NCBI GenBank assembly: GCA_035221665.1
Contig: CM069140.1
Span: 69,254,001 to 69,318,000, forward strand
DNA from: Okamejei kenojei
Taxonomy: Eukaryota
DNA: 64,000 bases
Direction of reading: 5' to 3'
Part shown: positions 4,728 to 57,510 of the stretch, piece after piece
Layout of the letters: every line of letters begins with the position of its first letter
How positions within the stretch are numbered: position 1 is the stretch's first letter
Position numbers and translations under genes: made by a program
Notes under the pieces: model-generated
The model's database searches: none
Seen by the model: the letters and a program-made list of their open reading frames with translations, nothing else
Told to the model about the DNA's origin: nothing

Positions 4728-4823
4728 GGTACACAAAAAGCTGGAGAAACTCAGCGGGTGCAGCAGCATCTAAGGAGCGAAGGAGATAGGCGACGTTTCG
4801 GGTCGAGACCCTTCTTCAGACTA
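4728..4823 (-). mobile_element. Penelope-like terminal repeat with intact hammerhead core
   Basis: Reverse complement reads AGTCTGAAGAAGGGTCTCGACCCGAAACGTCGCCTATC followed by the family tail. Confidence 0.7.
4788..4822 (-). ncRNA. Minimal type I hammerhead ribozyme motif (antisense to TGFBR3)
   Basis: CUGAAGA, extra A, stem II GGGUC/GACCC, GAAA, palindromic ACGU helix III, GUC triplet. Stem I is weak in this copy. Confidence 0.65.
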
Positions 4824-5754
4824 AAGATGAATTGGCTATTGTACGTTGTCCATTAATATAAACAAGTGCAAAAAGAATCAACGTGTTGATGGGCACGTGG
4901 GAGAGAATGTCGCAGGAAGGTATGAAATGAGGAGTAGTGGAGAGGTGACGTGAGACTGATGGGAAGTGGCATGAACCCAATGGGCCAAATACTTATTATC
5001 AAAAAATAAGTAACTTGCAAATATTTCTACTTCTCTTTTGAATCCTGTATTGTTAAAAATAACGTTATCATTTATTTCAAATATCAAAGAACACTTGCAA
5101 TTTATGTGCTTCTGAGGGCATATTGCTGGACCTATCCAGTGGGACCACAGAGTAAAAATGACAGTGTGCAGTAAAACTATTTCAAAGTAATGATAATTTA
5201 TTATGTGAGAACTTATAGTATTTACTCGTGCCTTGTATTCATTAAGCACTCTAAAGCAAAGCACAAGGAAAAGTTTTGCTTCTTCGAATGAACTTTATCT
5301 CAGACCAGTCCACTTTGTCAAATGAGTTCCATTTGGTTGTAACTTTGGACCAGCTTATCACTGTCTCTCTCCACTTCTACACTGACCCTAGAAATACCTG
5401 GTGATCCTGAGGATGTGTAAACATGAACACTCAAGTGAAAAGTAGACCTGCCTGACGTTATTAGGAACTGATTTTAGTTTGTTTTCTAATAACCTAAATT
5501 AGTTATATTGGTTTATTAGTTATAAACAAATTATTGATGGGAAATTCTCTGGTTGACTAGCGATCAAGATTCAACCAATTCCTTAATTCAGCTGATTCAC
5601 CATCCAATTATTTTTATACAACTACACGCATAAGCATGGAAGTCTCAACTACCAGAGGTGAGAGTATGGAATGGTGAGATCCAGGTGTTTATATATTGGA
5701 ATCTCCATTAGTATTTCTATCAAACATTGTCTACTCAATCAATGGGATATGTGT

Positions 5755-5908
5755 GAAGAAGGTCTGAAGAAGGGTTCCGACCTGAAACGTTGCCTATTTG
5801 TTTTCTCCAGACTTGTTTTCTCCAGATGCTGCTTAACCTGTGGACTTACTCCAGCATTTTGTGTCCATCTTTGATGTAAACCTGTAACTTCAGTTCCTTC
5901 CTACACAA
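5755..5908 (+). mobile_element. Penelope-like terminal repeat with hammerhead-like motif
   Basis: AGGT-CTGAAGA-A-GGGTTCCGACCT-GAAACGTT-GCCT, then tccagatgctgcttaacctgtggacttactccagca...cagttccttcctacaca. Confidence 0.65.
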
Positions 5909-6794
5909 GTGACATCACTGGACAAGGCTGGTAGATGTTAATGGTGGAAGAAAATCTTACGTTTTCAAAGGTTCAAATTTAGTTCATATTTACCATTACT
6001 TTCTATAAAGCACTGTTCACATTTAAAAGGAAATGTCAATTGACATTTATTACCAGGCCAGGGTCATTTTTTAAACTTCCAGCATGGATTTGAACATAAA
6101 TTATGACTCCAGCATGACAGTTAAGAACATTGGAGAATTTGTATGTTAAAAGAAGCAAGCAGTTTTTTTTGTAAGACTGCAGAAACAATACTGAAGGGGA
6201 ATCTATGTGTCATATTATATTACTAATTGGTTACAATGAAGAAGCATGCAATATTGCATTTAATCTTTAAATTAGAAATCCTAAGCCAGTCCCTTCAGAA
6301 TCTTCTTTTGCACATTTATGATAGTAAGCATAGTTTTAAAGGATCAAGATGATCAGAAAATGTTTACGGTAAAGAAAATGTCAATGACTAAATATTTGGG
6401 TAACAAGCTACAAAAGTAAGCAGAGATGAGAAGCTGAATAAATAGTGGAAGCAGGGTAAAGCAACATGAATACTTTTCCTTCAATTACTGTGGCCATTGA
6501 AAAAAAGATAAGGATGGGAAAAGGGTGAATAACTTGGAAAAAACCCTCTACTGACATGTTCATTTATTATTGCACACTTTCAGTGAACAGATGCACTTCT
6601 GTGTAAGAGTAAAACAAAACGCAGAAGAAAAAGCAGAAAACTAAGATTAAGTTGAAACACTGAGCAGTATGCTGGAACAAGTTCCTCTTTAGCAGGAATG
6701 TTAACATGTCCACAGAATCTCCTCACTGCTCACCAATTCTTAAGTGAACTGACATTATAAACCATGTTCAACCCATGAGCTAAGTAGCTCCTTA

Positions 6795-7925
6795 GAGTCG
6801 TGGAGTCATAGAGTGATACAGTGTGGAAACAGGCCCTGCGCTTAGACCATATCCCTCCAAACCTGTCCTAGCCATGTAAGATAGAAACATAGAAAATAGG
6901 TGCAGGAGGAGGCCATTCGGACCTTCAAGCCAGCACCGCCATTCATTGTGATCATGGCTGATCGTCCCCGATCAATAACCCGTGCCTGCCTTCTCCTTAT
7001 ATCCCTTGACTCCACTAGCCCCTAGAGCTCAATCTAACTCTCTTAAATGCATCCAGTGACTTGGCCTCCACTGCCCTGTGTGGCAGGGAATTCCATAAAT
7101 TCTCAACTCTCTGTGTGAAAAAGTTTTTTCTCAGCTCAGTCTTAAATGACCTCCCCTTTATTCTAAGACTGTGGCCCCTGGTTCTGGACTCGCCCAACAT
7201 TGGGAACATTTTTCCTGCATCTAGCTTGTCCAGTCCTTTTATAATTGTATATGTTTCTATAACATCCTGCCTCATCCTTCTAAACTCCAGTGAATACAAG
7301 CCTAGTCTTTTCAATCTTTCCTCTTATGATAGTCCCGCCATCCCAGGGATCAATCTCGTGAACCTACGCTGCACTGCCTCAATCACAAGGATGTCCTTCC
7401 TCAAATTAGGAGACCAAAACTGTACACAATACTCCAGATGTGGTCTCACCAGAGCCCTATACCTGCCTAACTGTTTCTTAAATGATGGGATAGTCCCAGC
7501 CTCAACTACCTCCTCTGGCAGCTTGTTCCATACACCCACCACACATAGTGTGAAAAAGTTATCCCTTGGATTCCTATTAAATCTTTTCCCCTTCACCTTG
7601 GACCTATGTCCTCTGGTCCACGATTCTCCTACTCTGGGCAAAAGACTGTGCATCTACCCGATCTGTTCCTCTCATGATTTTGTATACCTGTATAAGATCT
7701 CCCCTCATCCTCCCACACTCCATGGAATAGAGACCCATCCTACTCAACCTTTCCCTATAGCTCACACCCTCGAGTCCCGGCAACATCCTCGTAAATCTTT
7801 TCTGAACCCTTTCAAGCTTGACAATATATTTCCTATAACATGGTGCCCAGAACTGATCACAATATTCAAAATGCGGTCTCACCAACGTCTTATACAACTG
7901 CAACATGATCTCCCAACTTCTATAC
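6795..7925 (-). mobile_element. CR1 LINE (family B, HER1-like) 3' fragment interrupted by a younger CR1
   Basis: Minus ORFs with LYKTLVRPHFEYCDQFWAP...LERVQKRFTRMLPGL and RTRGH. Tail agagtcatagagtgatacagtgtggaaacaggccct at 6795-6840. Confidence 0.9.
6880..7460 (-). mobile_element. Young CR1 LINE (family A) 3' fragment nested in family B copy
   Basis: [24 protein letters not shown]...LEFRRMR...ESRTRGHSLRIKG...NFFTQRVENLWNSLP, with the (atagaaac)n microsatellite tail. Confidence 0.92.
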
Positions 7926-7944
7926 TCTTTATGAACAAAGAGTC

Positions 7945-8300
7945 CTAAGAGACTGCAGATGCTAAAATCTTGAGCAAAACACACTGCTGGAGCAACTCAG
8001 CGGGGCAGGCCACATCTGTGGAGGGAATAGATAAACAATGTCTCGGCTCAGGACCTTTCTTCAGACTGGCCAGAACATGGTCGGAGAGTAGCAGGGATCA
8101 CAGTGGAGCAGTGAGACAAGGTCTCACAAAACCCCTGTTGGAGAGAAGAGTATTTCTTAAACGTGGGCATATTCTAAGGAGATTTTGCAGTCAAGTAGTA
8201 AATTGGAAACCAAGGTGTCTGAAGAAGGGTCCCCACCCAATACATTGCCCGTCCATTCTCTCCACAAATGTTGCCTCTCAGTGTTACTCCAATTCTTTGT
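7945..8300. mobile_element. Inverted pair of Penelope-like terminal repeats (degenerate)
   Basis: Minus arm 7945-8067 (ctgcagatgct...gctggagcaactcagcggggcagg...ttcagact) and plus arm from about 8217 (gtctgaagaagggtccccaccc). Confidence 0.6.
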
Positions 8301-10164
8301 GTTCAACTCCTTATAAACTGCTTTCACATGTTCCATCTCCTTCATTCTTTGTTCATGACCATTTTTGTGCTAGCTAATATCATTGGCATTGTGTTGCTTT
8401 TTCTTTTAAAAAAACAGAGCCACAGAAGAAAATCCAGTTATAAATGCAATCCCATGCCATTGTGCTATTCCTGACTTTGTCCATCCAGAGAATTCCAATT
8501 GTGACCAGATTTAGAAACAAAGCCTAGTTTTGGAAGGGAACAGGAGTTGGCTGGAGAAGAGTTATCTTGGCAAAGTATAAGGAAATGAGGAGGGAGAGCA
8601 GGCACAGTGCTCGTGGATGACAACAAACTAAAAACAAACTATAAAAATAGCTTCAGTAGTAGGCAATATTTGACTGAAAATATTGTCTTTCAAACATGCC
8701 ACCAACTGATATTTGCAGGTGAAAAACAAGTAAAAACACATGTTAGTGAGATTATATAATTCGTATGACGTGTAGTGTATTGTACTTAATAATATCAATC
8801 TCTGATAAGCCATGAATTTGTTGGTATCATCAACATACACTTGTCAGATAATCTTTTAATGGTGATATTATTTTGTTTAAAAAAATCAATTTTGCCAATT
8901 TGGTGTGAGCTTCAATATCTTATTATTTTACTTGCCAGCTATTTTGTATCATTACCGCATAGCTAAAACATTTTACTTCCGTATGACTTCTGAGGAATAT
9001 TTATCTGAAAATAAGTTTTTGTAGTTCAGCTTACAACAGCTGTGGAAGTGTAGACAGCTCATGTTGCAGTGAAATTTGATATTACTCGGTGTACGTTGCC
9101 ATGCTAGTGGAATAATGTAAATTTGGAGTAGTTGTTATGAATGATCAACCAACTGGTTTATTGCTATACCCGTCCAGTAGAAACCGCTCAATCAATTTAC
9201 GGATTGGTTGCATTGCCTTTCATCTGTTGTAACTCAATTCCAGGTTGTGACTTGTCACCTTTGCGGTAAAAACAAAATGGCATTTTAATGGCTCTGCTTA
9301 CTTTGATCATTTTTTAACATTTCTCTTTTGGTCTTGTGATACAATACAAATTGCTTTAACAGAACCTGGAAGCCTGAATCAGAGAATTGTTTTTATAGTT
9401 GGTTGCTGTGGCAATTCTCAGCCTTCCGTGAAACCATCGTCTCCTGGGAAACACAAACTTGTGCAGCTGCCTTTGGCCTATTGACATCAAGTATATCTAT
9501 TATGGAGCCACTGAAGAAAGGTTTCTTCTGATTTTGTTGCCATTATCTGAGTAGAATAGACAAACAGAATGTATGTTCAGTTTGCAGAAAATTGTGACAT
9601 ATCCATTCATGAATGGCACTATTGTTAATGCTTTATGTAGATTTGAGTGGAAAGCTACATCAGATAAAATCAAGAATGCTGTTTTTCCTGTTGTCAAACA
9701 CAGTGAAGTAAATATTTTTCCAAGATGATCAAAATGGTTAAGAAAGCATTTTTTCATCTCTTGATTTAGGAGAGTGTGTGATATGGATGATAGAAATGCA
9801 GAATTCGGTATCACTGTGGCCCTTAATTTGCAGTGCGTTATGCTCTCTGATTATTTAACTGGCAGCGGGTATGGCTATCGGAGAAGATGGACTTTGCCTG
9901 AATGAATGGGGCCTTTCAGTCAGTTTCCTTTGGGGAAGGTTTGAGCATTAAAAGCAGCAGAGCAATAGAGGCTGTGCCAGATGACCAGCACCACTATATA
10001 GAACATTTTCATCATTTTAACTGAAGTTCACGACTTGACTGAATTAAACTACTCGTACTATAACTTGGACTTTTGTCCCTGACACACATATTGCACTTAA
10101 ATAAAACTGGTAACCTTTCATAAATTAAGTCATATGACATCTTTGAATTGCTTTATGTTAAGAG

Positions 10165-10719: not shown

Positions 10720-10846
10720 CATACAAGGAACTGCAGATTTTGGTTTACAAATAAAGATACAAATTGCTGGAGTAACTCAGCAGTTCAGGCAGCATCTCTG
10801 GAAAACGTGGATAGGTGTCGTTTCAGGTCAAGACCCTTCTAAGACA
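10720..10846 (-). mobile_element. Penelope-like terminal repeat
   Basis: aaggaactgcaga...tgctggagtaactcagcagttcaggcagcatctctgg...gtttcaggtcaagacccttc. Confidence 0.65.
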
Positions 10847-15759: not shown

Positions 15760-16122
15760 CATATTCTTAAGGACAAGCTAGATGCAGGAAGATTATTCCC
15801 GATGTTGGGGGAGTCCAGAACAAGGGGTCACAGTCTGAGGATAAGGGGGAATTCCTTTAGGACCGAGATGAGGAAAACATTCTTTACACAGAGAGTGGTG
15901 AGTCTCTGGAATTCTCTGCCACAGAAGGTCGTTGAGGCCAGTTCATTGGCTATATTCAAGAGGGAGTTGGATGTGGCTCTTGTGGCTAAAGGGATCAGGG
16001 GGTATGGAGAGAAGGCAGGTACGGGATACTGAGTTGGATGATCAGCCATGATCATATTGAATGGCGGTGCAGGCTTGAAGGGCCGAATGGCCTACTCCTG
16101 CACCTATTTTTCTATGTTTCTA
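15760..16122 (+). mobile_element. Young CR1 LINE (family A) 3' end
   Basis: MLGESRTRGHSLRIRG...FFTQRVVSLWNSLPQKVVEASS, 3' UTR gggccgaatggcctactcctgcacctatttttctatgtttcta. Confidence 0.92.
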
Positions 16123-18129: not shown

Positions 18130-18360
18130 CAACTCCCCACCCCTCACTTATGCCGACCTATTATCTGCCACGCTTTGTCCTGCTTCTCCCCCTTTCCGGC
18201 TTTCTTCTTTACCCTCAAGAATCAGTCTGAAGAAGAGTCTCGACCGGAAACATCACCAATCCGTGTTCTCCATAGATGCTACCTGACCCGCTGAGTTACT
18301 CCAGCACTTTGCGTCCTTTTGTGTATTAACCAGCACCTGCAATTCTTTGTTTCTACCTTT
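18130..18360 (+). mobile_element. Penelope-like terminal repeat with hammerhead-like motif
   Basis: cagtCTGAAGAagagtctcgaccgGAAACATCacc...gatgctacctgacccgctgagttactccagca. Confidence 0.65.
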
Positions 18361-20619
18361 ATTACAGGTTGTGGTGGCCGAGGGTTTGGGGAATACTGTC
18401 AGAGAAGCATTGCCAAGTTGGTGCAGTACATCTCATAGTGCATACTGCAGCCTTGTTTCTCTGCTGATGGGGGAAATTCATTTTCAAGATTATAAAATTG
18501 CCAGTCGAGTGAGATGCCTTGTTCTGAGTGTTGAGTTTCTTGTGTCTTGTGGATCTGCTCCCATCCAAGCGTGTGTACATCTTTAAGATCCTTTTCCTGG
18601 ATAGTGTTGAGTTTCTGGATCCATGTTGGAACCCCTCCCATCCAGGCAAGTAGACATCCTTGAGAGGCTTTGCAGATGGTGGAAAGGCTTTCCAGAGACA
18701 GGACATGACTAACCCACGACAGAATACCAAACCTGGCATCTGCTACAATAAGTAACTGGTTGACTTTCCATTTGTAATGGGGGAGAAGTATGAGCAATAA
18801 TAATACAAATAGTCGTATGTGTAAGGGGTGATTATACATTCTTTGGAATGGTCAGTGCCTGGGACTTGCATGGTGTGAAGATAACTTGCTGCTTTTCAGC
18901 CAGAGCTTGGTTGTTGTCCATGCCTTGTTGAGTTCCGCATGGGCTTTTCATTATCCACAGCTTTAAAATGTTTCCCTGGTCTTTTTAATTTGGCAAAATC
19001 CAGTTGTTTTTTTCGTTATAAGACTGCATAATGTCGACCTTCATTAAAGTGTGTCTAAAACCATTAAACCACTGAGCACTGATTCTTCACACCAGACGTT
19101 TGGCTGCATGACAAAACCTGCTGAAACACCAGTGTTGTTTGTTTTCTTCAGCAAAGCATTTATCAGTAAATCAAAGGTGAACTTTCCAGTTGTATTTTAA
19201 AGAGATAAAAGTGTATTTCCACCATAAAACATCATACTATAGAAACAATTATTTTATAAGTTACCTGTATAAAGATTTAATGATTCTTTTTAAACCCCAG
19301 TTTTATCTGAGAAGTACTACTTTGCTAAACTCATAAACTTGTGTTCCAGACTGGTTGGAAGGAGCTGGAACCATTTCAGCGTCGTCTTAGAATGAATAAC
19401 AGATTTGTCTGAGTCAAAATTTATATTAAATGGATTATATTTCAGACACGCAATCTAGTTATGTAAAATGCTTACACAAACAAATGTCTGCTTTGCACAT
19501 GCTGTGTATGAGCTAAGTAAATGTTACCACTTAAAACAAATTAATCTTTATACGCCGTACTCTTTAAACTGCAAACTGCTATGCACGGAGCACAGAAAAT
19601 AATAGCATAAAATTAATATTCTTCCATGGGAAAGAAATAATTTTCCTTGCAAATTATTAAAATAATGTTCTTTATAAAATCATGAAAATGGTCATTGTGA
19701 CAATGACTTAAATGAATATTTAATGATTTTCCCCAATGCCTTGTGACTTGCGCAAAAGAACGATGAAACATACATTTTAATTGAGAAGGGCATGACTGCA
19801 GTTTGTTAGGACAGTCAAAATGTGTAGGAAGGAACTGCAGGTGCTGGTTTATACCAAGGATAGACACAAAGTGGGGGAGTAACTTAACTGGTCAGGCAGC
19901 ATCTCTGGAGAAAAAGGAAGAGAGATGTTTCGGGTCAGAACCCTTCAGTACTGCGGTAACATAGAATGATAGTTACAGGAGACTTCCTTCTGCTGTGTTA
20001 AATTGCAGAGCTATCACTTTGAGTAGGTTTAAAGTTGCAAACATATTCCTGTGAAGCAAAAGAGCGTAGCTACTGTGGAAAACTGTATTTGTCGCATGAG
20101 CCATTGAAGCCAGGTAAACAGTAATGTGACCAGATATTGGATCAGGTAGCATCTGCGTTTTAGGTGCAGAGCCCACAGATTTTGATTTTACCCAGAGTTG
20201 ATCAACGCATTGATCATTCTGTGTCAAATCATGCCAGCCATGAAATTTGACATAACAGTTCCATATGCAGTCCACATTACAATCCTGAATTCTAGAGTCG
20301 GGTGACACCCAATGATATTGAGTCACATAATGGAATATTTTACAGGAATGCATCACTTTCATAAATGGGGCAACGCTGTACCATTTGGCAGAATTAATAA
20401 GGAGAGTGATGTCAATTAAACAGCGCAGTTCTAAAATAAATGCGCGAGCAGAGGTGCCTCAGTGTAAGGTTGTATCACATCCCATTCTCCTGCTTTACAT
20501 TTCACTCCTCTGCTTTTCTTATCTGACATCCTTTTGTTTCCTTTATCACCTCTGGCCTTTTTCACTTTCTCCACCCACCTGCTAATCACACCCCTTCGCC
20601 AGTATCCACCTATCACTTG

Positions 20620-20764
20620 TGTAGGAAAGAACTGCAGATGCTGGTTTAAATCGAAGCTCAGTCTGTGGAAGGGGCTCGACCCAAAAAGTCACCCATTCCT
20701 TCACTCCAGAGATGCTGCCTATCCCGCAGCATCAAGCATTTACTCCAGCATTTTGTGCCCACCT
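20620..20764. mobile_element. Penelope-like inverted unit nested in an older copy (about 20585-20910)
   Basis: Flanked by the 15-bp direct repeat tccacctatcacttg (20605-20619, 20765-20779). Confidence 0.7.
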
Positions 20765-21654
20765 TCCACCTATCACTTGCCAGGCTTTGTCCTACCCCTA
20801 TCTCTCCTTTCCATCTTCAGCCCCCTGCTCCATTAGTGTGAAGAAAAGTGTTACCCATTTCCCTCCAATGATACTGCCTGACCTGATGAGTTACTCCAGC
20901 ATATATATTTTTGGACAATTGGCTTATTTACCTCTTTCTGTGTCATAGCGATTCAATATCAGGCTTATATGCTTATTTTATCTGTGAGCCCAATGCACGA
21001 TTTTGACACCAATCTGTCCATAATTTATATTACTAATTTTGTTTGCAGCTGTACTTCTCACTGAACAATGAATTGTTATCCTATTCAGTCATCTTGTTAT
21101 AATGTGGTTAAAACTGATGATCATGCCATATCTGTAGTTTAAAATTGAGCATTGTTTACCGACATTTTATGCCAATAATGTTAGCTTTAGCAAAGCAGTT
21201 CAAAAGGTTTACTCTGATGGCAGATATAATGGCAATCCAGTTGAGCAGAAAAGTAATCTCGTTAATCTACACAAAGTAACAAATATCTGTTTTTTATATA
21301 ATGCATCAGAAGGGCCAAGCATAAAAAGGATTCAGCATCTATAACAATGCTGCCAAAAGGTTATTTCATACATTAAATCAGAAATCTAGACTTTGCAAAA
21401 TCTAGTATTGTTGCCAAGAAATTGTTTTCTTCCAGAAAGATAAAAAATCATTAAAATAGTAACAGTAGTGGTATTGTTTAAGCTATGAAAAAAAAACTAT
21501 TAAAGTCACATATCTGATTATTTTATGGCTTCATTACGCAGGCCTGGAGAGAGAAATATTTTCATGACCAATGTCAATGACTTATATTTCTGTATTATCT
21601 GTAATATATGAATTATCAATAAGCATCGCTACAGTGGCTAAGATAGATGTCATG

Positions 21655-22242: not shown

Positions 22243-22398
22243 CATGTGGGAAGGAACTGCAGATGCTGTTTTAAAGATAGACACAAATTGCTGGAGTTGC
22301 TCCGTGGGGCAGGCAGCATCTCTGGAGAATTGCCACCCATTTTTTCTCTCCAGATATGCTGCCCGTCCCGCTGACTTACTCCAGCATTTTGTTTCTAT
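22243..22398. mobile_element. Penelope-like inverted unit with target-site duplication
   Basis: Arms tgctggagttgctccgtggggcaggcagcatc and atgctgcccgtcccgctgacttactccagca. Flanked by 14-bp cttctatacttatt (22229-22242, 22399-22412). Confidence 0.72.
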
Positions 22399-22414
22399 CT
22401 TCTATACTTATTAT

Positions 22415-26574: not shown

Positions 26575-26785
26575 GTAGAATACAAAGTGCTGGAGTAACT
26601 CTGGGTCAGGCAGCATCTCTGGAGGATATGGATAGGGACCATCTTCAAACTGTAGTCTGCAAATCGAATAAGGTTGTTGACCCAAAACATCGCCTATCCA
26701 TGTTCTCCAGAGATGCTGCCTGACCTGTTCAGTTACTCCAGGACTCTGTGTTCTACACAACGTTCCAGCATGTACAGTTCCTTGT
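26575..26785. mobile_element. Penelope-like inverted pair
   Basis: gctggagtaactctgggtcaggcagcatctctggaggatatggatagg is complementary to cctatccatgttctccagagatgctgcctgacctgttcagttactccagg. Confidence 0.7.
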
Positions 26786-27514
26786 GGCCGCAAATGCAAG
26801 TGGTTTTTAATGCCCACCAACATCCTTTTGGTGTTTAAAGTAAATATCAGTTCCGTCATCGTGTGCAGCTGGAACAGAGGTAAGCATAAAATGGAACATT
26901 AATGTTGTGACAAATACATTTTTGGAATTACTGGTTGCTGGGAAGTTGAGATCGTTGTATTCACCTGATAGAAAGTTGTACAATATGTACAGAATCACAT
27001 ATAAAAGGTGCCGTGTAGCAGTAAGAGTTAAACCCCTCCTTTGGATTTTGTTCATCTATCTAGCTTCACCAAACTTAAGTTTGGATGCTCCCTAACAGTC
27101 TATGAGTCTGCACTATATGGTGTCGCAGCATAGTCAAATTAATGCCTTTTACTTGATTGTTTTGTTTTAAGTGATGTCCTATTTTGGCTGTGTTTTTAGT
27201 TTAGCTGTGATTCTCCTGCATTTGGCCAAAAGGGGATGGATGCTGAGTCAGTGCTGGTTACATTTTAGGAAAGACAGGATATTGCAGATGCTGGAATTTG
27301 GAACAAAAACAACCTGCTGGGAGCACTCAATGGGTAAAGCAGCATCTGTGGAAGCAAAGTGGTAATTGATGTTACAGATCGAGACTCCGCATCAGTACTA
27401 ACTTCAGGGGAATCAACCAAAGTGTCGACCAACCCTTTGTCTTTACAGATGCTGCTTTATCCACTGTCATCCCACAGCGGTTTGTATTTTGGTCCTGCAA
27501 AGATTTCTGTTGGA

Positions 27515-27810
27515 GGCAATACAATGGCACAGCTGGTTGAACTGCTGTCTTACAGCGTCAGAGATCTGGGTTTGATCCTGATCTTGGGTGCTGTCCCTGT
27601 CGAGTTTGCATTTACTTCAGGTGCTCCGGTTTCCTTCCGCATCCTAAAGACTTGTAGGTTAATTGGCCTCTAAAATTGTCCTTGGTATGTAGAAATTGAA
27701 TGAGAAAGAAGGGTAACATAGAACTATGCCCAGTGTGGACCTGGTGAGTCCAATGTGATCGATGCCCAGTGGGACTTGGTGAGTTGAATTTCCTGTATCC
27801 TTGTTGTATG
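27515..27810 (+). mobile_element. V-SINE (HE1-like), partly deleted
   Basis: ggcacagctggttgaactgctgtcttacagcgtcagagatctgggtttgatcctg head and ggtgctccggtttccttccgcatcc core. Confidence 0.8.
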
Positions 27811-29353
27811 AAGTAAGGCAAGTTCCCAACCTGAAACTTTGTCTGTTTGTACCCTCCACAGATGTTGTCTGACCCTCTGAGGTCCTGCAGCACTTTGTGT
27901 TTTGCTCAGTTCAGTGTGTTCAGGTACAGGTCAGTCATGGTCTGCCTGGGTGATGAAACGCATTTGGGAGTCTGAATCAAGTGGCCTCTGAATTGCCTGT
28001 GTCGCAAGTTCACACAAAAGCAGGTGGTTGTCTGTTACTTCATCTCTCCCCATCAGTGCTGCATCTCCCTTGCATCTCGCATCTGTAACTGATTCCAAAT
28101 ACTGTTCCTTTGTGCATTTTGACTTATTTCACTCCACTCTACATGTCTGTTTAGTCACTAGAGTTATTTTTAAGCCACACAGTCTCCCACACAAAGCTTT
28201 TGGTCACTGCGACTTAATGTTCTGCATTCCTGGACTCTCCCAAATACTAAAGACACTAAATAAATACATATTGTTGTTGTTGATACCAAGACTGGCCTTA
28301 ATTATGGCTTTTTTACTTGGTGCTAAACTAAACCATGCATTTATCACTTTGTTTTATTGCACTAACAAAAAAAATTTCCGAAGGATTATTTCTAAAGGTC
28401 GAACAGCTGGCTGTCTCTATAACTTTTTGGCTCTAATCAGTGGAGCGTCAGACTCCAATCCATCTGCATTAAATTTGTGCTGTAGGATGTAGGTATCAGG
28501 AAACTAGACGGGAATACGTACAGTACCGTGAAAGTAGCCTACTTATGGCACTGAAGGTGGGAAATAATATTTTGCATTATGGTTGGAGCATTGGTGGTTA
28601 AAATAAAGTAATGAGTATATGAAATAAATCCGGTTGGAAGTTATTCTCCTCCAACATTGAAGCATGTTTTTGTGCAGTAAAATTAATTCCACATAAACTG
28701 TCTAGACCAGAAAGTAACTGGCCACATATTATTTATCACTCAAGCCCTAAATGTACTGGGCCGGCTACAATGCAGCCAGTTGTGGGCCAAGTTTTAATCG
28801 ATGTTATGTTTAACATTAGTAAACATTGTAATATTATCATTCATTACTTTTCAACAATTTCAGCTTTTCATCTTATGGAGGCAATAGCCATGGCTTCTTA
28901 GTAGTTTGAATTTGAGCCTGGATTTTGTAGGCCACTGTTTATTGCACATGCACTCATTCGGAACCCCCCTGGGCCCGTGCATTTGAATTTACAGCAATCT
29001 TGGTACGCTGCTGTCTAAATCTCCAACATTAATTAAAATCTAGAGGATTACTGATACAATAACTTACTGATACAAGTTAGGTTTGAATGCCAGGAAGATT
29101 AATGGCACTATTTAAGATTTATTGGACTGTAGATTTGTTCACTTACAGTGCTTTTAACCCAGAATTGTACAATTCTTACACATTTTTCTCTGCCAGCACC
29201 ATGAATTTGCTAATTTTCTCAGAGGCACTTCCGGCATAAAACATAAGGGCCCCGGCAATATAAAATGTCACCCTGGAGTGACAAATATTAAGCAATATTT
29301 ATTTATGTACAGGAATGGTTTTAACAAAATGATTTTATTCTTTCTAATTTTAG

Positions 29354-29537
29354 GTGTCTAAGAATTCTACAGTTCAGTTTCCAACAGCAAACTTTACCTC
29401 ATCAAAATCATTGGAAGAGCATTCACTGCCTCAAGGTAGTAAACACTTACTGCAGTGGACCCAGAGAAAATACGGGTTCGTAACATCTTTCACTGAACTG
29501 AATAAGGTGAATAATATTTACATCAAAGTGGGTGAAG
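29354..29537 (+). CDS. TGFBR3: TGFBR3 coding exon (about exon 5), orphan domain
   Basis: ttttag|GTGTCT...GGTGAAG|gtgagt, 184 nt. VSKNSTVQFPTANFT...LLQWTQRKYGFVTSFTELNKVNNIYIKVGE resembles betaglycan YGAVTSFTELKIARNIYIKVGE. Confidence 0.96.
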
Positions 29538-29881
29538 GTGAGTTCATCTTACATCGCGATTGCCGTAAGTTGTCTCTTATCTGTAATGATCCGTGTGAAT
29601 TGTACACACTGCCAATAATGAACAATTCACACTGTTATTTAGTTATCGGTATGTTAGTATAATTATTTGAAATTAGTTCTTCCAGGTAGCTGGGGTTTGA
29701 TGTTTGTAAAGTGTTTTGCTGTTTATTACCTCTACATATAATATTGATTATTTACCATAAGGTTTGGTAAAATTAGCACCTCAGATATTTGTTTGCCACA
29801 GTTAAACTGAACAAATCTTAAGACAATATTTCGATGTTGGTTTGTGAACAAATCACAATACACTGTTTCAAACTTTTCCAG

Positions 29882-30360: not shown

Positions 30361-30703
30361 TGGCCTGTCACACTTACGCGACCTTTACAGGCGACTGTCA
30401 ACACCTGTGATAGGTCGCCGAAATTTTCAACATGTTGAAAATTCAGCGGCGACCAGAAAGACACTACGACTCTTTGGAGACCTCTCATGATCATAGGAGA
30501 CTTCTCACAACCATACAGGCTGTATGTCATGAGAGGTCACCCGCGATATGTCGCTAGGGGTCGCCTGTATGGTCGTGAGAGGTCTCCACTGAGTCGTAGC
30601 GTCTTTCTGGTCGCCGCTGAATTTTCAACATGTTGAAAATTTCCATGACCTATAACGGGTGCCGGCAGTCGCCTGTAAAGGTCGCATAGGTGGGACAGGC
30701 CCA
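30361..30703. mobile_element. Palindromic MITE (non-autonomous DNA transposon) flanked by TTAA
   Basis: Left TTAA|TGGCCTGTCACACTTACGCGACCTTTACAGGCGACTG, right CAGTCGCCTGTAAAGGTCGCATAGGTGGGACAGGCCCA|TTAA. The arms are complementary over more than 130 bp. Confidence 0.88.
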
Positions 30704-31433: not shown

Positions 31434-32239
31434 AACTTTTGCGAGGGTAGCATGCATAGAAATACTTCTGATAGGATGTATTGATTAAGAATTGTTTTTG
31501 TTCCACATCTTGTGTGATTTGTCTATGTTTTCACTTTTTTAATCTGGTGACATGGACTGCTTATTATTTTATTTGATTTTTATTGGCATTTCTGGCCAAT
31601 TAATTTTGAGGGACACCAGCTGGTTGTTGTTACTGGGATCCTCCAGTTTGGGTCAATGTACTTGAGGTTTGTCTTGCAGAGAGTTGTACAGGGCACTGCC
31701 TTTGACCACAGTTTAATTACATTCAGTTTGGGCCTTCACTGTTACGAAAAGCTGCTTTATTTACAAATGATCAGTGCCAAGTAGTGCTAAAACCAATATT
31801 GTGCAAAATCTCACCAGATTTTGGTCATTGTTATGCCAGTGGCTTTACACGAACTAGATACCAGGAAAACAGCTCCAGAGTTCTCGAAAATATTTCCCAC
31901 CATGTCCATACCTATTAACAACTAGCATTAAGCCTCCCAAAAACTTGCTCAAAATTCGTTATTGTCACATTTCTTCCACATCACACAGATAAACTTCTAG
32001 GATAATGACTAATTGCATCTTGTTAAATTTCCCTGACTTAATATAACTAACAACTTCCAGATGACTCCCCCAGTAATTAATGATTTTAATGGGGCACCAG
32101 TATTTCACATTGCAAGATTCTTGGAATGCCCCATCTAACCTCAGGAAATAGTTCCTGATGACGCCTAGTGACATTTTAACTGGATCCAATTGTTTCCATG
32201 ACTCCTTCATCCCTCTTAAGTTTTCCAAGTTTTCTAAAA

Positions 32240-32337
32240 GAAAGACACAAAATTCTGGAGTAACTCAGTGGGTCAGGCAGTATCCCTGAAGGAAATGGAT
32301 AGGTGACGTTTCGGGTCAGAACCATTTTTCAGACCTA
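32240..32337 (-). mobile_element. Penelope-like terminal repeat with hammerhead-like motif
   Basis: Reverse complement TAGGT-CTGAAAA-A-TGGTTCTGACCC-GAAACGTC-ACCTA has a perfect 5-bp stem I but a G8-to-A change in the core. Confidence 0.65.
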
Positions 32338-34294: not shown

Positions 34295-34490
34295 GACACA
34301 AACAATTGCAGATGTTGGAATCTTGAGCCAAACACAGAGTGCTGGAGGAACTCAGCAGGTCAGGCAGCATCTGTGGAGGGAATGGACAGGTGACGTCTGA
34401 AGAAGGGTACCAACCCGAAATGTCATTATTCTCTTCATGGATGCTGCCTGATCCACTGAGTTCCTCCAGCACTTTGTGTTTTACTCAGAT
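34295..34490. mobile_element. Penelope-like inverted pair with central hammerhead motif
   Basis: Arms 34331-34371 and 34440-34480 are near-perfect reverse complements. The centre is CTGAAGA-A-GGGT-ACCA-ACCC-GAAATGTC. Confidence 0.75.
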
Positions 34491-34764
34491 CCTATTTAAG
34501 ATTGGGAACATTTCAGCACACTTTCGGTTTCTTCAAAAAAGTTATTTTCTCAATGTATTGAACACTCCAGTTAGGCACTGAATCTGCCCATCCTTTGCTT
34601 ACATCACACACTCTGTTACACTAACCATTTGTGGCTGCATAGCTCCTAACAACCTCTTGGTCTGAAAAGGGCATATGAGTGCCAATTAGGCCACAGGTGG
34701 TGGAAGCTAAGAGCCTGCCTATGGAACTTCCTGTAGGCCTTCCTGCAGTTCAAGGCTTTCTTTG

Positions 34765-38795: not shown

Positions 38796-40484
38796 GCCCA
38801 TAGAGAGTAGAAAGGAAGCATCTATTCCCCATGCCAAAGGCAGAGCCAAGTACATAGATTTAAGGGAATTGTTGGAAAGGTTATACGTCAATGGAATTTT
38901 CAGTTAAAAACCCCTGGAACTTACTATCTGAATGAACGAGTTTAAGAGCAAGCCCAAGAACATTAAGAAAGAACAGGATTAGAACATTTTCTCCCTCAGC
39001 ATTTAGAACATTTTGCCCCTTTGCTCAACATTTCAACTTGATTTACGGCTGATTTGCCCTAAGCCTCTATTCCTCTTCTCCAGTTTCCTATTGCCCTCAG
39101 TTTCTTGATCTTTCAAAAGTGTATGTATTTCCTCTCTCCAAATACCCACAAATCTGGTCACCACCAACCTCATAAGTGGAGACTGACAGAGATTCACCGC
39201 TGTTAGAAAGTGGTCTATGTACCTCAGCTTCCAAAGTCCTCACGATTGAGATCCTTCTTCAAGTGGAAACATTGCAACCTCTACCCTGAATAAGTCTACT
39301 GGTTTGAGTCACTTTCAAAGGGGAGAAATCATTAATTGAATTAAAATGTATTTGCGTATGAGTTCATAGTTATGACAACTGGGAGGTAATTCTTCTTTGC
39401 ATGTGGTGACTGAGCTAGAAGGTTTCCCATGCCATTACCTTCCATATTCCACTGTTATAACCTCTTTTTCTCTAAGTTTTAATTTTTTTAATACAATATA
39501 ACCTGTGCCTGAGCCATTTGGCCACTTTTGGCTGCTTGTCGGGCGCACCTTTACTCACTAGGAGATATCATTCTACCTTTCAGTCAGCTGCCACAAGGCA
39601 TCATTTGCTTGTTCCTACCTGATCCTGCATTGAACATCAATGACAATCCTTGTGCATTTTATTTAAATTTTCACAATCCTTGCAGCAGAGACGCACAGCA
39701 GCATTTTCAAAAGAGAACCAAAGAGATTTCCAGTGTCAGGAAATGTAGGACAATGTAAAACTAGATCTGATCATGGAAATAATATGATCTAGATCATGGA
39801 AATAATATGTTTGTAATATTTTTTAGACTTTGAAGGATGTAAAGGTGTTTTCTTAACTGCATTCCTGATGTAGAACAAACTTCAATTTCCCAAGGTCAAT
39901 TGTGTCAGCATGCATAATTTCTGAAATGTTATGGTGAAAATTACCCTTGCTTACTTTCCTTCTGAAACAAAAATCCAACCAGTACCAGAGGTTTTTCATG
40001 GATGCAAGTCATGCATGGTTACTGCAATCTCTGTCCTTTTGCAATTTAGTAAATAGTTTTATGCCACTCTTTTTGTGATCCTGTATTTCACACATCATTC
40101 GCCAGTTAGAACGGTTTATGGGTCTGTCTCTTTTCTCACTCCCATTAAAATGTATGTACTGCAGGTTATGCTTGTTAGACTTAGAAACCAGACGGCTGAA
40201 TTCAGTTTTGATTCTGTTAGGAAGCAACTGGAAGAATAAAGTCTACACATTCTTGAAGACTATGCTTTTACTTGATGAGGAAAGACACAAAATGCTGGAG
40301 TAAGTCTATGTGTCAGGCAGCATCCCTGGAGAACATGGATAGAACATTTCGGGTTCGGACGTTTCTCAAAACTGAATTACTCCAACATTTTGTGCCTTTA
40401 CTTGGGAAACCAGCATCTGCAGTTCCTTGTTTCTACACCCTAATTTTACTTGATGTCCATCCTTTTATGAAAATACAAATTCAC

Positions 40485-48111: not shown

Positions 48112-48151
48112 ATGGGTCTGAAGAAGGGTCTTGACCCGAAACATCACTTAT
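48112..48151 (+). ncRNA. Minimal type I hammerhead ribozyme motif in the TGFBR3 sense strand, within a Penelope-like repeat (about 47990-48212)
   Basis: Stem I AUGGGU/ACUUAU (6 bp, two G-U), CUGAAGA, extra A, stem II GGGUC/GACCC, GAAA-C-AUC triplet. Confidence 0.65.
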
Positions 48152-48936
48152 TCCTTTTCTCCAGAGATGCTGCCTGTCCTATTGAGTTACTCCAGCTTTG
48201 TGTGTCTATCCTCAAGTAGATTGTTGCTTCGATTGTTTGCTAGTTGTAGATACAGTTGTGCTTGAGCATTCTGTTGCCATAAAAGGAAAGAACAATGAGA
48301 TTGGGCAGAGTCAATATGGATTCATGAAAGGGAAAAGTTTTTTTGAGGTTATAATTACCAAAATTGGTAAGGATGAATATTTCTGGTTATTTCAAAGGCT
48401 TTTGATAAACTGCCACTCGAGAAGTCACCAAATATAATTAGAGTGTGAGAAACTGGTCATCAGCCAGAGATGCTGCCTGGCCCGCTGTTACTCCAGCAAT
48501 TTGTCTTTTTTTTAGGCTTTAAGAAGGTATTGACAGACTAATAAAATGGGTGAGGATATAGCAGATAGCATATAATAGAAGTGTCTGCTTTAGTTGAAAA
48601 ATGTGCTGAAGCAATGCATTTTCTCAATTGTTATTGGAATGCATGGGTCTCCAGAGGGATTTGGGTGTCCTTTTTCACAACTCAGTGAAAATCAACATGT
48701 GGGTACATCAAGCAGAAAGAAAGGCAAATGATATCATGGCCTTTAGTTTTAAAGATTTTAGTTTTAAAGATACAGCATGGAAACAGGCCCACTGAGTCCA
48801 TGCTGACTATCGATCACCCGTTCACACAAGATTCCTAGAGGATTCAGTGCAAGAGTAAAGATACATGAAGGTTGAAGCCGCAGAGATTAAGCAATCTGAG
48901 TTGATATTTTTATCCTCCCATGATCTTTTTCTACAG

Positions 48937-49089
48937 ATTGACACATCTACAGTTATGGAGATTACTCTACTGGATCCAAAATGCAAAGCAAAAGTAAATG
49001 CCACGCATTATATTTTGGAATCTTCACTCACTGGCTGTGAGACGACTATGTACCCTTCCATGGATGGTTCCACTGTCTATTTGAATTCG
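48937..49089 (+). CDS. TGFBR3: TGFBR3 coding exon (about exon 10), ZP-N
   Basis: ctttttctacag|ATT...AATTCG|gtaggt, 153 nt. MEITLLDPKCKAKVNATHYILESSLTGCET resembles human MDVTLLDPTCKAKMNGTHFVLESPLNGCGT. Confidence 0.96.
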
Positions 49090-50661
49090 GTAGGTGAAAC
49101 AATTAATAAGCTGCTGGCTTTAAACTTGTTGCAAAAGACTACAATGAAACTAATTTTAATCCTGTCCACCAGTGGATAATAAACTACTGTCAAAGATTAA
49201 AACAAATATCAAAAGGTTCTGCTTTGAACAATATATGGATCGCGTACAGGCAGAAGGAGATTAGTTTACCTGGACATCATGTTCGGCACTGACATTGTGG
49301 AGCAAAGGGTCCTTTACAGTGCTGTACTGTTTTTTGGTCTATGAGTGTTGGGCGGGCAGATTGACAGTTTTTCAGAGATTGGAAGGGAGGCCAACCTGAT
49401 GGGTTGCATATTGAAGCCATGGTGGGAGGTCACCACTGATGGACGTAATTGGGAGGCCCAAGGGAAGAATTGGGAAAGTATATTCTTCAAAAGCGACCCA
49501 CCTGAGGCAACATGTCTGTGCTAAACATTTGCTTTAGCTGATCCCTTTTTAAGTAATACTGAAGCAGGATTGTAAATGTTTTGAAGGTCTGCTTCTGTAT
49601 AGACTGCCTTCTCCCTCAGGGAGCTGCATGTATGGTGGAGAATCCTCAAAATCTCCTCTAAGTGTGATGTGTCTATCACTGTCAGATGCTGGGCAAGTAT
49701 GGGCTCTTCCATGCATTAGCTGGTCAAGCCCGAGAGGATACAGAGGAAATCTGATATTTCACACAATTGCTTAGTTTCTCTTTAACTTTTATTTCTCATT
49801 AGCATTCAATTGTTTAGGACACCAAAATGTGAGACCTGTGGAAACCAATTTTTTGGCATTTGTTCTTCAGATCCAGGTTTTGTGTTTTTTCACAAAATAT
49901 GTGGTCCTGCTGCTTTTCGAATGCTATACTGCATTGAAGTTACTAATGGGGGAAAACGTGTTTTTAGTTTCAGTTTCATGACACAACCTTATTAAAATTA
50001 AGAGAAAATGTATTTTACAAAAAGCAGATTTATCCTGCTCTCCATTTGATTTTTCACGATTTGTTAATTTTATAAAATATATTGACGAATGCCTGGATGA
50101 AATATGCTTCAGGCCAATTGGATGTACACTAGATTAATATTTTTTTCTGAGCATAGAAAGAGAATGTTTAAACATACAATTCTATGATAAGTAGATGCAG
50201 AGGGAATGAGTGTGTTGGGGAGGCTCATTGAGGGAAAAGATAAGGAGAGCAGTAGAGGAGAAAAAGGGGAAAATTATACTTGTATAAAATTCTACGTTAA
50301 GAGTGACATCTCAGAAAACTTTCTATGGTAGAGGAATAATATAGACCAAAAATAGGAAGCAGAATAGATGGCGGTGTAGGGAAGCAAAATGAGCTGTCTA
50401 TGGAAAGATTGTTAAGTGGGTGGCAATGCTAAAAGTTTGAAGGCAAAAGTTACTGCACATGGCAGAGGGGAAATGATGAGGAACTGCTGATGGACAGAGT
50501 TTAGAGCAAGTAGCACCATGCTAGAGATTGAGCCGATTACAGATTGGGTACCTGGAGGAAAACATATTTTCTTTTACTATTTGAGCATGACCAGTGATTT
50601 TGCAGGTCAACTATTTCAAAAAGGTTTCATTAAGATATTCTTAATTTTCCCTGACTGACAG

Positions 50662-51561: not shown

Positions 51562-52090
51562 CCTAATCTGAGGAAAGACATTCTTGCCATAGAGGGAGTA
51601 CAGAGAAGGTTCACCATCTGATTCCTGGGATGGCAGGACTTTCATATGAAGAAAGACTGGATAGACTCGGCTTGTACTCGCTAGAATTTAGAAGATTGAG
51701 GGGGGATCTTATAGAAACTTACAAAATTCTTAAGGGGTTGGACAGGCTAGATGCAGGAACATTGTTCCCGATGTTGGGGAAGTCCAGAACACGGGGTCAC
51801 AGTTTAAGCATAAGGGGGAAGTCTTTTAGGACCGAGATGAGAAAAACATTTTTCACACAGAGAGTGGTGAATCTGTGGAATTCTTTGCCACAGAAGGTAG
51901 TTGAGGCCAGTTCATAGGCTATATTTAAGAGGGAGTTAGATGTGGCCCTTGTGGCTAAAGGGATCAGGGGGTATGGAGAGAAGGCAGGTAAGGGATACTA
52001 AGTTGGATGATCAGCCATGATCATATTGAATGGCGGTGCAGGCTCGAAGGGCTGAATGGCCTACTCCTGCACCTATTTTCTATGTTTCTA
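51562..52090 (+). mobile_element. Young CR1 LINE (family A) 3' fragment abutting an exon acceptor
   Basis: MAGLSYEERLDRLGLYSLEFRRLRGDLIETYKILKGLDRLDAG...NLWNSLPQKVVEASS. The tail ttctatgtttcta ends at about 52090. Confidence 0.93.
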
Positions 52091-52117
52091 ATAATGATAA
52101 TGTTTCTGTTGTTTCAG

Positions 52118-53598: not shown

Positions 53599-53907
53599 GT
53601 CTCTATAACAAAATCTGACCCAGATATCAGTTTTGTCATCCAAACATGTTACATTTCTCCATCGTCGGACCCTGCTGCCCATTCAAACTATGCCATTATT
53701 GAAAACATTTGTCCAAGAGAAGACTCGGTGGCCTTCTACAGTTCCCAGAAGCTTGATTTCCTCATACCGCACGCAGAGATGGAGAAAAAGAGATTCACAT
53801 TTATCTTTAAGCCAGTCTACAACATTTCCTTGGTTTTCCTTCATTGTGAAATTACGTTATGCAGTAAAAAGGATGGTGAAAGTCAAGGATTTCCTAATCT
53901 CCCCAAG
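53599..53907 (+). CDS. TGFBR3: TGFBR3 coding exon (about exon 13), ZP-C
   Basis: gtatttag|GTCTCT...CCCAAG|gtttgt, 309 nt. VSITKSDPDISFVIQTCYISP...IIENICPREDSVAFY...KKRFTFIFKPVYNISLVFLHCEITLC. Confidence 0.96.
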
Positions 53908-54257
53908 GTTTGTCTATTTAGTCATTTGAAAATAAGGACATAAATACCAGCAATTTGCAATGCATGCTTTATTTCTACAAGTTTAGAATGTTAGTCAGAT
54001 TTCCTCATCCACGTTAAAAGCAGTTGGAACATTTATCTAGTTATAGATAACACAACACGCAGCTTTAACTAAAAGTTGCTGTAACTTTGCTTATGCCCAC
54101 TGCTGAAGTAAATAATGTGAGTCACCAGAATGATTTATGTATCACCTGACAGCCAACAATCTATATCTTGAGATCTGCCGTGTTGAATCATACATTGCTT
54201 GTGCATATTTTCTATAGAAAACATTTACCAGCTTTGTCACGGGCTCCTATAATCTTG

Positions 54258-54897: not shown

Positions 54898-55027
54898 TGT
54901 ATTCCACCTGATGAAGCTTGTATAAGTGTGAATTTTCAAATAATAATGGCTATGGCAAGGAACAGGCAAGCATTTACAAAACCACTGGCCGTCATTTCTG
55001 GAAAAGTTGCTCCAACCATCGCACAAG
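54898..55027 (+). CDS. TGFBR3: TGFBR3 coding exon (about exon 14), end of ZP-C and external hydrophobic patch
   Basis: cttgctgcag|TGT...CAAG|gttagt, 130 nt. CIPPDEACISVNFQIIMAMARNRQAFTKPLAVISGKVAPTIAQ resembles human CVPPDEAC...FTKPLAVI. Confidence 0.95.
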
Positions 55028-55056
55028 GTTAGTCACCATTAAAAGCCTGACTAGTT

Positions 55057-55081
55057 TGTGTGTGTGTGTGTGTGTCTGTGT
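55057..55081. repeat. (GT)n microsatellite about 30 nt downstream of an exon donor
   Basis: tgtgtgtgtgtgtgtgtgtctgtgt seen directly. Confidence 0.9.
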
Positions 55082-57319
55082 CACATATACTTCTTGTGCA
55101 TTGGTTTACATAACGGGTAATCCACACAGATGTGTGCAATCAGTAACTGCTTTCCTCTAGGCTAGCAAAAAAACATTAATGAAGTGTGGAATGTCACATT
55201 TTCACAGATGGCAGGGTTTTTTTTGTGATCGAATGGAGGTATGAAATTTTCTCTAGACCAAGCTATCAAGATCTCACTGCTCACATTGAGGCAGTGTCAA
55301 ACGAGAGGAATGAAATCACTGGTAGATTAGCAGAACTTTTGCATATTGTTGTAAATAATACCTTTACTTGCAAGGGTTAAATATATTTGTGATACGACTT
55401 GAACAGAAGGGAAGCATCAGTTGAAAGAAATGGCAGAAAAGTAGAATTGAGTGTCATCGATTTGGCATATGTATGGAAAATAATCCTATCTAGGACAGGA
55501 ACGCATTATAGTGTGAGCCTATGATAACCAATGCAGTCCAGGGGTAAAGGTGCATGTAAGACCACATCTCATTAACAGAAGTTTGACGGCTGCTTCTACG
55601 TTGTTGGACGAAACACCACAGATCTGCAGCTGGATGCTGGAGGACTAATGATTAGCGAGAGTAAAGCGATCGACCATGTCAAGTGCTTTGGAGCAGTTGA
55701 AGATGGTCAAGAGGTTATGGTGCCATGCCATTTATTGAGTATTGGTTTGTTCTAGCCAGTAATGGTTTTTGAGGTGGGGAGAGTTGCGTAGGCAATAGGG
55801 AGAGAGCATCTCCCATTCCTTCAGAAGGTGATGAGAGAGAGAGAGACAATGGGGTCTGGGATGCCATGGAACTGTTCCCAGTCCCTGACAAAGGGCTGCT
55901 CTCAACCAGTGTCAATCAGGCGGGGGTGGGGGGGCTAGGGGATTGTATTATGTTCCTGGCCCAACAGTGTACAGCCCAAATAGATCTTTTTTTTTTATAT
56001 TGGGGAGGGATATGTCCCTATGAACGTTATGGTTGGATGACCAAGAACGCTGTAATAAATCAACAATCTGCACAGTATCAGTATAGAATTTTTCACAGGA
56101 AATATGAATGGACTATTGTTTTATATCTTGGTAAAAGTATGAAGTTTGCTTTCCAGTGTAGTTTTGTTTATTAAGTTGAATTTGGACTGTTTGATTGGGG
56201 TTGAAGAGCATATTTGCTCTAACAGATCAGTTGCGTGAAGGATGGATAGATCTGACCATGTACTCCTGTACATGTTATTGTTTAAATCTGTTCCATTAAA
56301 AAATGGCCTTGTTAACAAAGAACAGTTGTTTTCAATATAGTCTGTACAAGATTTAAATGAAAAACTATGAGCTGGATATATACATTTGTAACAAAGTCAT
56401 AAACAAACTGTTATTGAAAGCCTAATTTCATAATTGGATTGTGTCTCATTGTTTTGTGCTTGATTCTGCTCTAGCCTAACATATCAACCAAATACATATT
56501 CTGATCAGACCAGGACATCTCTATCGTTGTTTTTTCCTCCCTGCCTTCAATTGGATGCAGATCCATTCAAGATAGCTCATTCACCCTTACCTACACCCAA
56601 TATGGTTTACCAGATAGAGGTTCACGCCATGCCATCCCTACCCCACGCCACCCCTCCATCACATCTCACTATATCTTCACTGCCTCTATATTGGCCTGAA
56701 CCTATACGAGCTGCAATTTTATCAAAATAAACAGTAGGAAAGACAAGTAAAAGTTGACTTTGATTCTGACACAAACTCGATAACCTTGACCCAATACCAC
56801 GCTCTAAAATGCTGAAGTAATCTACAACCTTGGCTAGTGTCTGGGGAAAGAAACCGACGAGATCTGATTTTTCAAATCTTTTCTCACTTGCCTCCTACGT
56901 TCAACACTTCGAAACTTCAGCTCGCCAACAACTCTGAAGAGATTGATGCAGGCAACAAAAACAATTATGGTAATCTGGAATAAATAACCACACCCCTTTA
57001 TAAACAACATGTTTTGAAGCATATGGACTTTGTTTATCCATTCTTTTATAAGTGAAGCAAGCAGTGCTTATATGGAAAGATATTTGATGAATTACTTATG
57101 TGTTTATTCTGTTTAGACAGTAAAGGGAGGGAAGTCTATTAAATGCATTTTGCTCTATTTTGATTGTCTGTGTGTGAAGGTGTTCATTTTTGTACTTTAC
57201 CATTTTCTTAGTTAATAGATAAATTCAATGGATTGCAAGAACATTCCACACTGTTTTGGTTTGCACACTGGGTTAAATTTCTTTAAAATTGAACATTTCT
57301 TAAAACAAAGGCCACCCAA

Positions 57320-57510
57320 GTAACTGCAGATGCTTGCGAAAAACACAAGCTTCTGGAGAAGCTCAGCGGGTCACGCAGCATCTGAGGAGAGAATGACCAG
57401 ATGATGTTTCCATTCGGGCCTGAAGAAGGGTCCTGAACCAAAACATCAGTAGTCCATTCTTTCCCCAGTTACTACCTCGCCTGCTGAGTTCCTCCGGCAC
57501 TCTGTTTATG
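57320..57510. mobile_element. Penelope-like inverted pair (degenerate)
   Basis: ctggagaagctcagcgggtcacgcagcatc...cctgaagaagggtcctgaaccaaaacatc...ctgctgagttcctccggcact. Confidence 0.65.

Follow-up and report, generated by a model that had tools for sequence, protein, structure and literature searches.

We analysed a 64,000-nucleotide stretch of the Okamejei kenojei genome (NCBI GenBank assembly GCA_035221665.1, contig CM069140.1, positions 69,254,001 to 69,318,000, forward strand; hereafter the window), which carries many dispersed copies of a short repeat with a hammerhead ribozyme motif. These repeats are probably 95-135-base pseudo-long terminal repeat (pLTR) stubs of an endonuclease-bearing (EN+) Penelope-like element (PLE) of about 4 kb, in which a mostly broken hammerhead is an idle passenger and whose ends would reflect an RNA start at YCAGT together with run-off of reverse transcription. 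In the mechanism that we propose, the element RNA would start at the A of YCAGT, three bases ahead of the CUGA box, and the element's protein would nick genomic DNA and begin reverse transcription at internal tail sites, as in the anole PLE. Priming in the first pLTR would then run off at the RNA 5′ end after 95-135 bases and leave a solo stub, and priming in the second would give longer, randomly truncated copies with the open reading frame (ORF). The hammerhead of the active element may cut only as a dimer, via ACGU, and with protein help. Throughout, the A of CAGT is numbered +1, the cut site being +32, and published work is cited by identifier from excerpts of each source.

The parent Penelope-like element

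A profile search recovered 29 pieces of the repeat in the window compared with none in the reversed control, and 17 of these pieces extended into the hammerhead core. A preliminary description of the window, prepared from the letters alone, had reported a high-copy repeat in about ten copies; the high copy number was confirmed while the count proved too low, and the six clear and six decayed copies that it named do lie where it had placed them, on the same strands. Using a profile rebuilt from 54 of 60 seeds, we found 190 pieces, with a control of 0, in a 464-kb sample consisting of the window, 8 neighbouring and 32 arbitrary 10-kb stretches. The 32 arbitrary stretches held 123 pieces, a density of 384 per Mb; extrapolated genome-wide, this gives ~1.06 million pieces with each inverted arm counted on its own.

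The link to Penelope-like elements, also proposed in that description, was borne out elsewhere in the genome, where the motif is joined to an ORF with reverse transcriptase (RT) and GIY-YIG domains. Upstream, long copies enter first a GIY-YIG domain, which has a CNRRKCYTC linker, and beyond it RT motifs. After 150 RT matches (from 37,643 candidates) were scored and 20 with long open frames taken, the motif was found 97-230 nt past the ORF stop in 19 of these 20 loci. In each of the three ORFs scanned with Pfam, a single frame held both RVT_1, at E 1.5e-6 to 5e-5, and a GIY-YIG match, at E 3.4e-5 to 2.1e-3. The Atlas score to RT/GIY-YIG clusters was 0.98; a PDB search using the ORF gave no match. 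On the 5′ side, 12 of 30 loci had a second motif ~1,005 nt before the 5′ anchor, and from this motif the sequence continues past the tail to a putative ATG ~165 nt downstream. Of 10 of these loci recovered at full length, 6 held two motifs, spaced 2,849, 3,730, 3,960, 4,008, 4,023 and 4,066 nt apart. These data showed that the unit is pLTR - ORF (RT, CX4CxxC linker, GIY-YIG) - pLTR, about 4 kb long, which is the layout of EN+ PLEs.

Other features of EN+ PLEs were likewise present, namely the optional 30-40-bp tail, inverted 5′ arms and direct pLTRs or partial tandems, as was the CX2-5CxxC linker (here CNRRKCYTC) with C-terminal endonuclease by which excerpts of PMC8557442 define Neptune and Nematis. 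This linker and the C-terminal endonuclease point to one of these two clades. The element shares with the members described there a single ORF with RT followed by GIY-YIG, the CX4CxxC linker, partial tandems, inverted 5′ arms and the optional 30-40-bp tail, and differs in a long proline-rich repeat region near the N-terminus and a unit of about 4.0 kb.

The hammerhead motif and its decay

In ORF-linked copies the motif reads YCAGU-CUGAAGA-A-GGGU-CUCG-ACCC-GAA-ACGU-C-(A/G)CC, and here the proposed minimal type I hammerhead, with an ACGU palindrome replacing helix III, was upheld. The core, G10.1-C11.1, the extra base at 9/10.1 and the NUH triplet were all found in ORF-linked copies and in subfamily majorities, and in 1 of 17 window copies. 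The flanks and stems are to be read differently from the preliminary description. Exact cores preceded by T numbered 14,415 genome-wide (CAGT, 7,380; DAGT, 2,323; GGT, 1,424; YGT, 1,415; no G, 1,873; reversed-pattern control 0 for every class), and the native sequence before CTGAAGA is CAGT rather than NNGGT. Thirty GGT loci comprised 2 with native upstream sequence, 9 with an inverted arm and 19 with an unrelated flank, the null for these classes being 6 of 300 falsely called native and 11 of 300 falsely called inverted. TAGGT, AGGT and ATGGGT, which had been taken for a stem I that stays paired across different sequences, are junction sequence and displayed no covariation. Helix I measured 2 bp in ORF-linked copies and in 30 of 30 CAGT loci, short of the 4-5 bp of the class; a third pair formed in 12 of 74 cases, against 13.8 in shuffles, and an independent descriptor, with 0 matches in five Markov controls, gave 2 bp in all 7 of its matches. 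For stem II, 4 bp with a 4-nt loop is a better reading than the 5 bp and 2 nt given previously. An extension of stem I in GGT copies with unrelated flanks was considered and found not convincing, with 10 of 19 reaching at least 4 bp against ~6.6 expected by a hand estimate. The Rfam scan of the window that had been suggested as a check returned 3 matches at E<=5, all unrelated to hammerheads, and hence no hammerhead family at this threshold.

Intact hammerheads were rare among genomic copies, amounting to 1 of 17 core-bearing copies in the window and 5 of 118 in the 464-kb sample. All six copies that had been singled out as the clearest are present, but just 4788-4822 is intact: copy 32300 carries G8>A, copies 18224 and 48112 have ACAT instead of the ACGU palindrome, copy 34397 has ATGT where the palindrome is expected, and copy 5760 has a G-U at 10.1-11.1 and a U at N17. 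The copies in the window are as follows.

2376..2471, plus strand: pLTR stub, decayed core
4721..4821, minus strand: pLTR stub of the youngest subfamily, beginning at +1; core, stem II and ACGU all intact, as in no other window copy; 2-bp helix I; sequence identical to the pLTR of ORF-bearing copies
5762..5900, plus strand: pLTR stub; core letters retained, G10.1-U11.1, N17=U; AGGT arm instead of native CAGT
7954..8066, minus strand: decayed pLTR stub
8217..8312, plus strand: decayed pLTR stub
10725..10840, minus strand: pLTR stub plus tail, decayed core
18225..18347, plus strand: pLTR stub plus tail; 2 of 4 pairs in stem II, without the palindrome
19828..19946, minus strand: pLTR stub plus tail; core carries a deletion
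20661..20766, plus strand: decayed pLTR stub
22270..22401, no strand assigned: inverted pair of pLTR tails without hammerhead core
26578..26780, no strand assigned: inverted pLTR stub pair; decayed core in the plus arm
27285..27490, no strand assigned: old inverted pLTR stub pair
27809..27913, plus strand: decayed pLTR stub
32232..32334, minus strand: pLTR stub; G8>A, G10.1>T; TAGGT arm instead of native CAGT
34330..34502, no strand assigned: inverted pair; core of the plus arm fused directly to the inverted arm
40265..40409, no strand assigned: inverted pLTR stub pair, decayed core
48116..48219, plus strand: pLTR stub; palindrome lost (ACAT)
57339..57519, no strand assigned: inverted pLTR stub pair, decayed core

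Changes were found at 140 of 486 CpG positions versus 43 of 648 non-CpG catalytic positions, and the hammerhead in genomic stubs decays mainly through CpG loss. A lower change rate at catalytic sites was not used as a sign of selection, being confounded by base type and by the required 5′ match. When 18 intact copies were folded from +1 to the tail, the stem II pairing probability was below 0.5 in all 18, and in the six folds displayed the purine-rich 5′ box paired with downstream pyrimidine tracts. Since so few copies are intact and stem II is predicted to be unfolded, the stubs are unlikely to be working ribozymes, as the dispersed copies had been supposed to be; their hammerheads are likely idle passengers copied from uncut RNA. 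For other PLE hammerheads, excerpts of PMC4209133 describe monomers that were uncleaved and dimers that were cleaved little, and according to PMC11167929 cleavage is protein-assisted and not required for insertion, with uncut RNA as the main substrate.

Copy ends and the putative RNA start

The ends of 374 copies, unselected for the 5′ end and with matches that had to reach model position 85, were then placed on the motif. The 3′ ends fell at +90-99 in 166 copies and at +120-134 in 123, two clusters that agree with the optional 30-40-bp PLE tail, and an inverted arm lay upstream in 145 of the 374. As for the 5′ side, 107 of the 168 copies reaching +3 stopped between -4 and +3, and 52 of the remaining 61 extended beyond -10. 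No peak was seen at the cleavage site, where starts at +31, +32 and +33 numbered 3, 4 and 5, near the neighbouring rate; a start peak at +39 (20 copies) came largely from a tandem array. About 36% of exact cores retained native upstream sequence, as estimated with classes weighted by the first 30 loci of each on contig 1, a non-random draw. The full-length copy L125 begins at +1, and in contigs of 4 of 4 public runs, whose RNA label is a guess, loose ends clustered at -1 to +2. The 5′ pile-up at the motif edge likely marks the RNA start of the element, as judged from copy ends. PLE promoters have been located inside the pLTR (PMC2377424; PMC6765202), and reverse transcription of the anole element begins internally at tail sites on uncut RNA (PMC11167929), insofar as the excerpts report.

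Two further observations concern copies that begin elsewhere. Four ORF-bearing copies (L113, L133, L137 and L139, at ~620-655 as oriented) begin near the tail end (~+130 to +160) and not at the motif; such starts are reminiscent of old Penelope copies, for which a solo ORF between short repeats has been described. At L181:1613-2152 lies a 54-bp tandem array of 10 copies, 97% alike, that derives from the pLTR tail without the hammerhead; similar units occur in L035, L036, L037, L039 and L244, and the array is a minisatellite born from the element's end.

Sequence around the putative start resembles core promoter motifs, the consensus sequences being those in excerpts of PMC5580651. The +1 site fits the RNA polymerase II (Pol II) initiator (Inr; TCA+1GTY; BBCA+1BW) at 5-6 of 6 positions, CGACC at +18 to +22 is an exact fit to the revised motif ten element (MTE) CGANC, +28 to +32 fits the downstream promoter element (DPE) RGWYV at 4 of 5 positions, and CGG at +27 fits at 1 of 3; background rates were 0.0012, and 0.165 for a DPE-level match. 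We tentatively raise the possibility, which we hold to be less probable than not, that the 32 hammerhead bases double as a Pol II core promoter, with the Inr at YCAGT, an MTE-like CGANC in the stem II loop and a DPE-like box over the cleavage triplet, and that the roughly one million stubs are complete run-off cDNAs from an internal priming site to the first base of the RNA. If so, promoter duty would account as much as catalysis for the invariance of a motif whose helix I has only 2 bp.

Several observations weigh against the proposed run-off mechanism and its promoter reading. The promoter motifs were picked post hoc, the youngest subfamily has CCAGT, and some copies carry G at +20. A stable YNMG-type tetraloop explains the CG in the loop equally well, and the MTE is mainly a Drosophila element. 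A cap-derived G was counted by hand in 47 of the first 100 DAGT matches but in 6 of 18 among unrelated flanks. All 24 listed public runs are contigs, unable to show RNA starts or expression. RVT_1 fell just below the Pfam cut-off in all three ORFs scanned and GIY-YIG lay above it in one of the three, and Pfam gave no match on two shorter ORF fragments (locus L034). In the Penelope element of D. virilis the motif lies ~120 nt downstream of the start site (excerpts of PMC2377424 and PMC4209133), so an overlap of start site and hammerhead is not general. Finally, among 117 unselected copies none of the pairs in helices I, II and III rose above shuffles, a comparison whose power is limited by the uniformity of the family, and the only differences between subfamily majorities are changes in the loop and a one-sided U-A/U-G change. 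Because no covariation supports the fold within the family, the motif is identified as a ribozyme from its core letters and its position. A GCGT-loop search for other hammerhead families gave 12 matches, and since 9 of these resemble the present family, no outgroup for covariation was available. Three single-match GCGT-loop motifs (L275, L280 and L281, match ~1500) have stems unrelated to the family and no GIY-YIG tail seen upstream; they are possibly other PLE families or chance.

The same element could also give a 5′ pile-up if RT stalled or switched template at the C-rich tract, or at the base of a helix closing over the CUGAAGAAGG box, with no RNA start involved. The native upstream sequence is indeed a pyrimidine tract in all ORF-linked subfamilies, the CUGAAGAAGG box pairs with downstream CCUUC tracts in the displayed minimum free energy folds, and starts are scattered over -3 to +5. 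However, the pairing of box to tail end appeared in just 4 of 18 folds, YCAGT is retained across otherwise dissimilar untranslated regions, and 52 of the 61 copies beyond -5 also pass -10; because such copies mostly continue far upstream, the tract itself is no barrier. We therefore consider stalling unlikely. Still less probably, CAG|T serves as a splice acceptor, like its counterpart in D. virilis Penelope, and splicing lengthens helix I and so switches the ribozyme on. Excerpts of PMC4209133 hold the precedent, a pyrimidine tract, CTGAC and CAG directly precede the motif, and in L127 and related full-length copies the putative start codon, at ~+160 from the motif, coincides in part with a donor-like AAG|GTATG; yet no join between the motif and a donor in another part of the element was present in 150 anchored loci, and no GT..AG joint was seen among the 15 shown of 51 joints. 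The missing spliced DNA copies count as weak evidence, because PLE copies retain introns.

The preliminary description had implied that the stubs propagate themselves as a non-autonomous family, similar to retrozymes or short interspersed elements, by means of active hammerheads. Their density of ~384 pieces per Mb and great excess over ORF copies would suit such a family, and animal retrozymes have been proposed to derive from pLTRs (excerpts of 10.64898/2026.07.22.740005). The stubs nevertheless match the pLTRs of ORF-bearing subfamilies, the single tandem array examined is without a hammerhead, starts are not piled at the cut site, and the scarcity of intact copies (5 of 118) and the 2-bp helix I of all 7 descriptor matches also speak against it; we regard it as highly improbable. 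Neither was the layout of retrozymes encountered, as window copies are single or inverted and the 54-bp array at L181 has no motif, though no genome-wide array search was made.

Comparison with known hammerheads and the surrounding sequence

The family belongs to the class of minimal PLE hammerheads published in PMC4209133, as one more fish genome; fish occurrence and the spread as single truncated copies are already described there. In the excerpts of that paper, shared characters are the core boxes, the extra base between A9 and G10.1, G10.1-C11.1, the palindromic 15.2-16.2 without helix III, the location in both pLTRs, and the predominance of single truncated copies in genomes that include fish. 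In contrast, helix I is 2 bp here and 4-5 bp in Schistosoma, with 2 bp reported in these excerpts only for an atypical D. virilis motif; helix II has 4 bp instead of 6-8; the 14,415 exact cores compare with about 4,000-9,000 motifs in coelacanth and Xenopus; and the present family is one nearly invariant sequence, whereas the published motifs form many covarying families. With PAc, the Poseidon element of the green anole, as excerpted from PMC11167929, the family shares the location of the hammerhead close to the junction of pLTR and ORF, a preference for two 3′ ends downstream of it, and copies that include the uncut site. PAc is of a different clade, and its ORF begins inside stem II, whereas here the first in-frame ATG lies ~165 nt past the motif. 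Non-LTR retrozymes, reported from one chondrichthyan (excerpts of 10.64898/2026.07.22.740005) as PLE-related, are likewise non-coding, related to pLTRs and equipped with a type I hammerhead, but form tandem arrays with a hammerhead per unit, unlike the dispersed, single or inverted and mostly broken stubs. We found no publication naming the present family or the promoter overlap in a search of literature listings, Repbase and Dfam aside, and cartilaginous-fish motifs may be in the supplement of PMC4209133. As a natural archive, the stubs document the ends of PLE transposition on a very large scale. Excerpts of PMC8557442 and PMC11167929 leave the role of these hammerheads unsettled, and a motif that would sit on the start site and yet is predicted to be folded off offers a direct test of catalysis versus promoter function as what keeps it.

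The window overlies a TGFBR3 (betaglycan)-like gene on the plus strand, of which these parts were mapped.

29354..29659, plus strand: frame with TGFBR3-like exon (phmmer to TGFBR3 chains, E 1.2e-18)
48859-49176, plus strand: exon of the TGFBR3-like gene
53599..53940, plus strand: frame with ZP-C exon of the TGFBR3-like gene (E 4e-39)

Relative to this gene 10 copies are sense and 7 antisense, with 2 and 2 between two mapped exons, and no strand bias was seen. A frame at 63404-63781 on the minus strand resembles a Tc1-type transposase fragment, with no Pfam match at E 0.01. Many 3′ fragments at 6870-7996, 15771-16114, 22505-23106 and 51567-52090 belong to another family, which we take to be similar to long interspersed elements; Pfam gave no match. 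An inverted repeat at 30362-30701, with 134-nt arms that are 88% complementary and 72 nt apart, lies outside the family's matches. At 22298-22376, a weak Rfam match to mir-9186 (E 0.011, far under gathering) falls on an inverted pair of pLTR tails; thus, such pairs can mimic microRNA hairpins.

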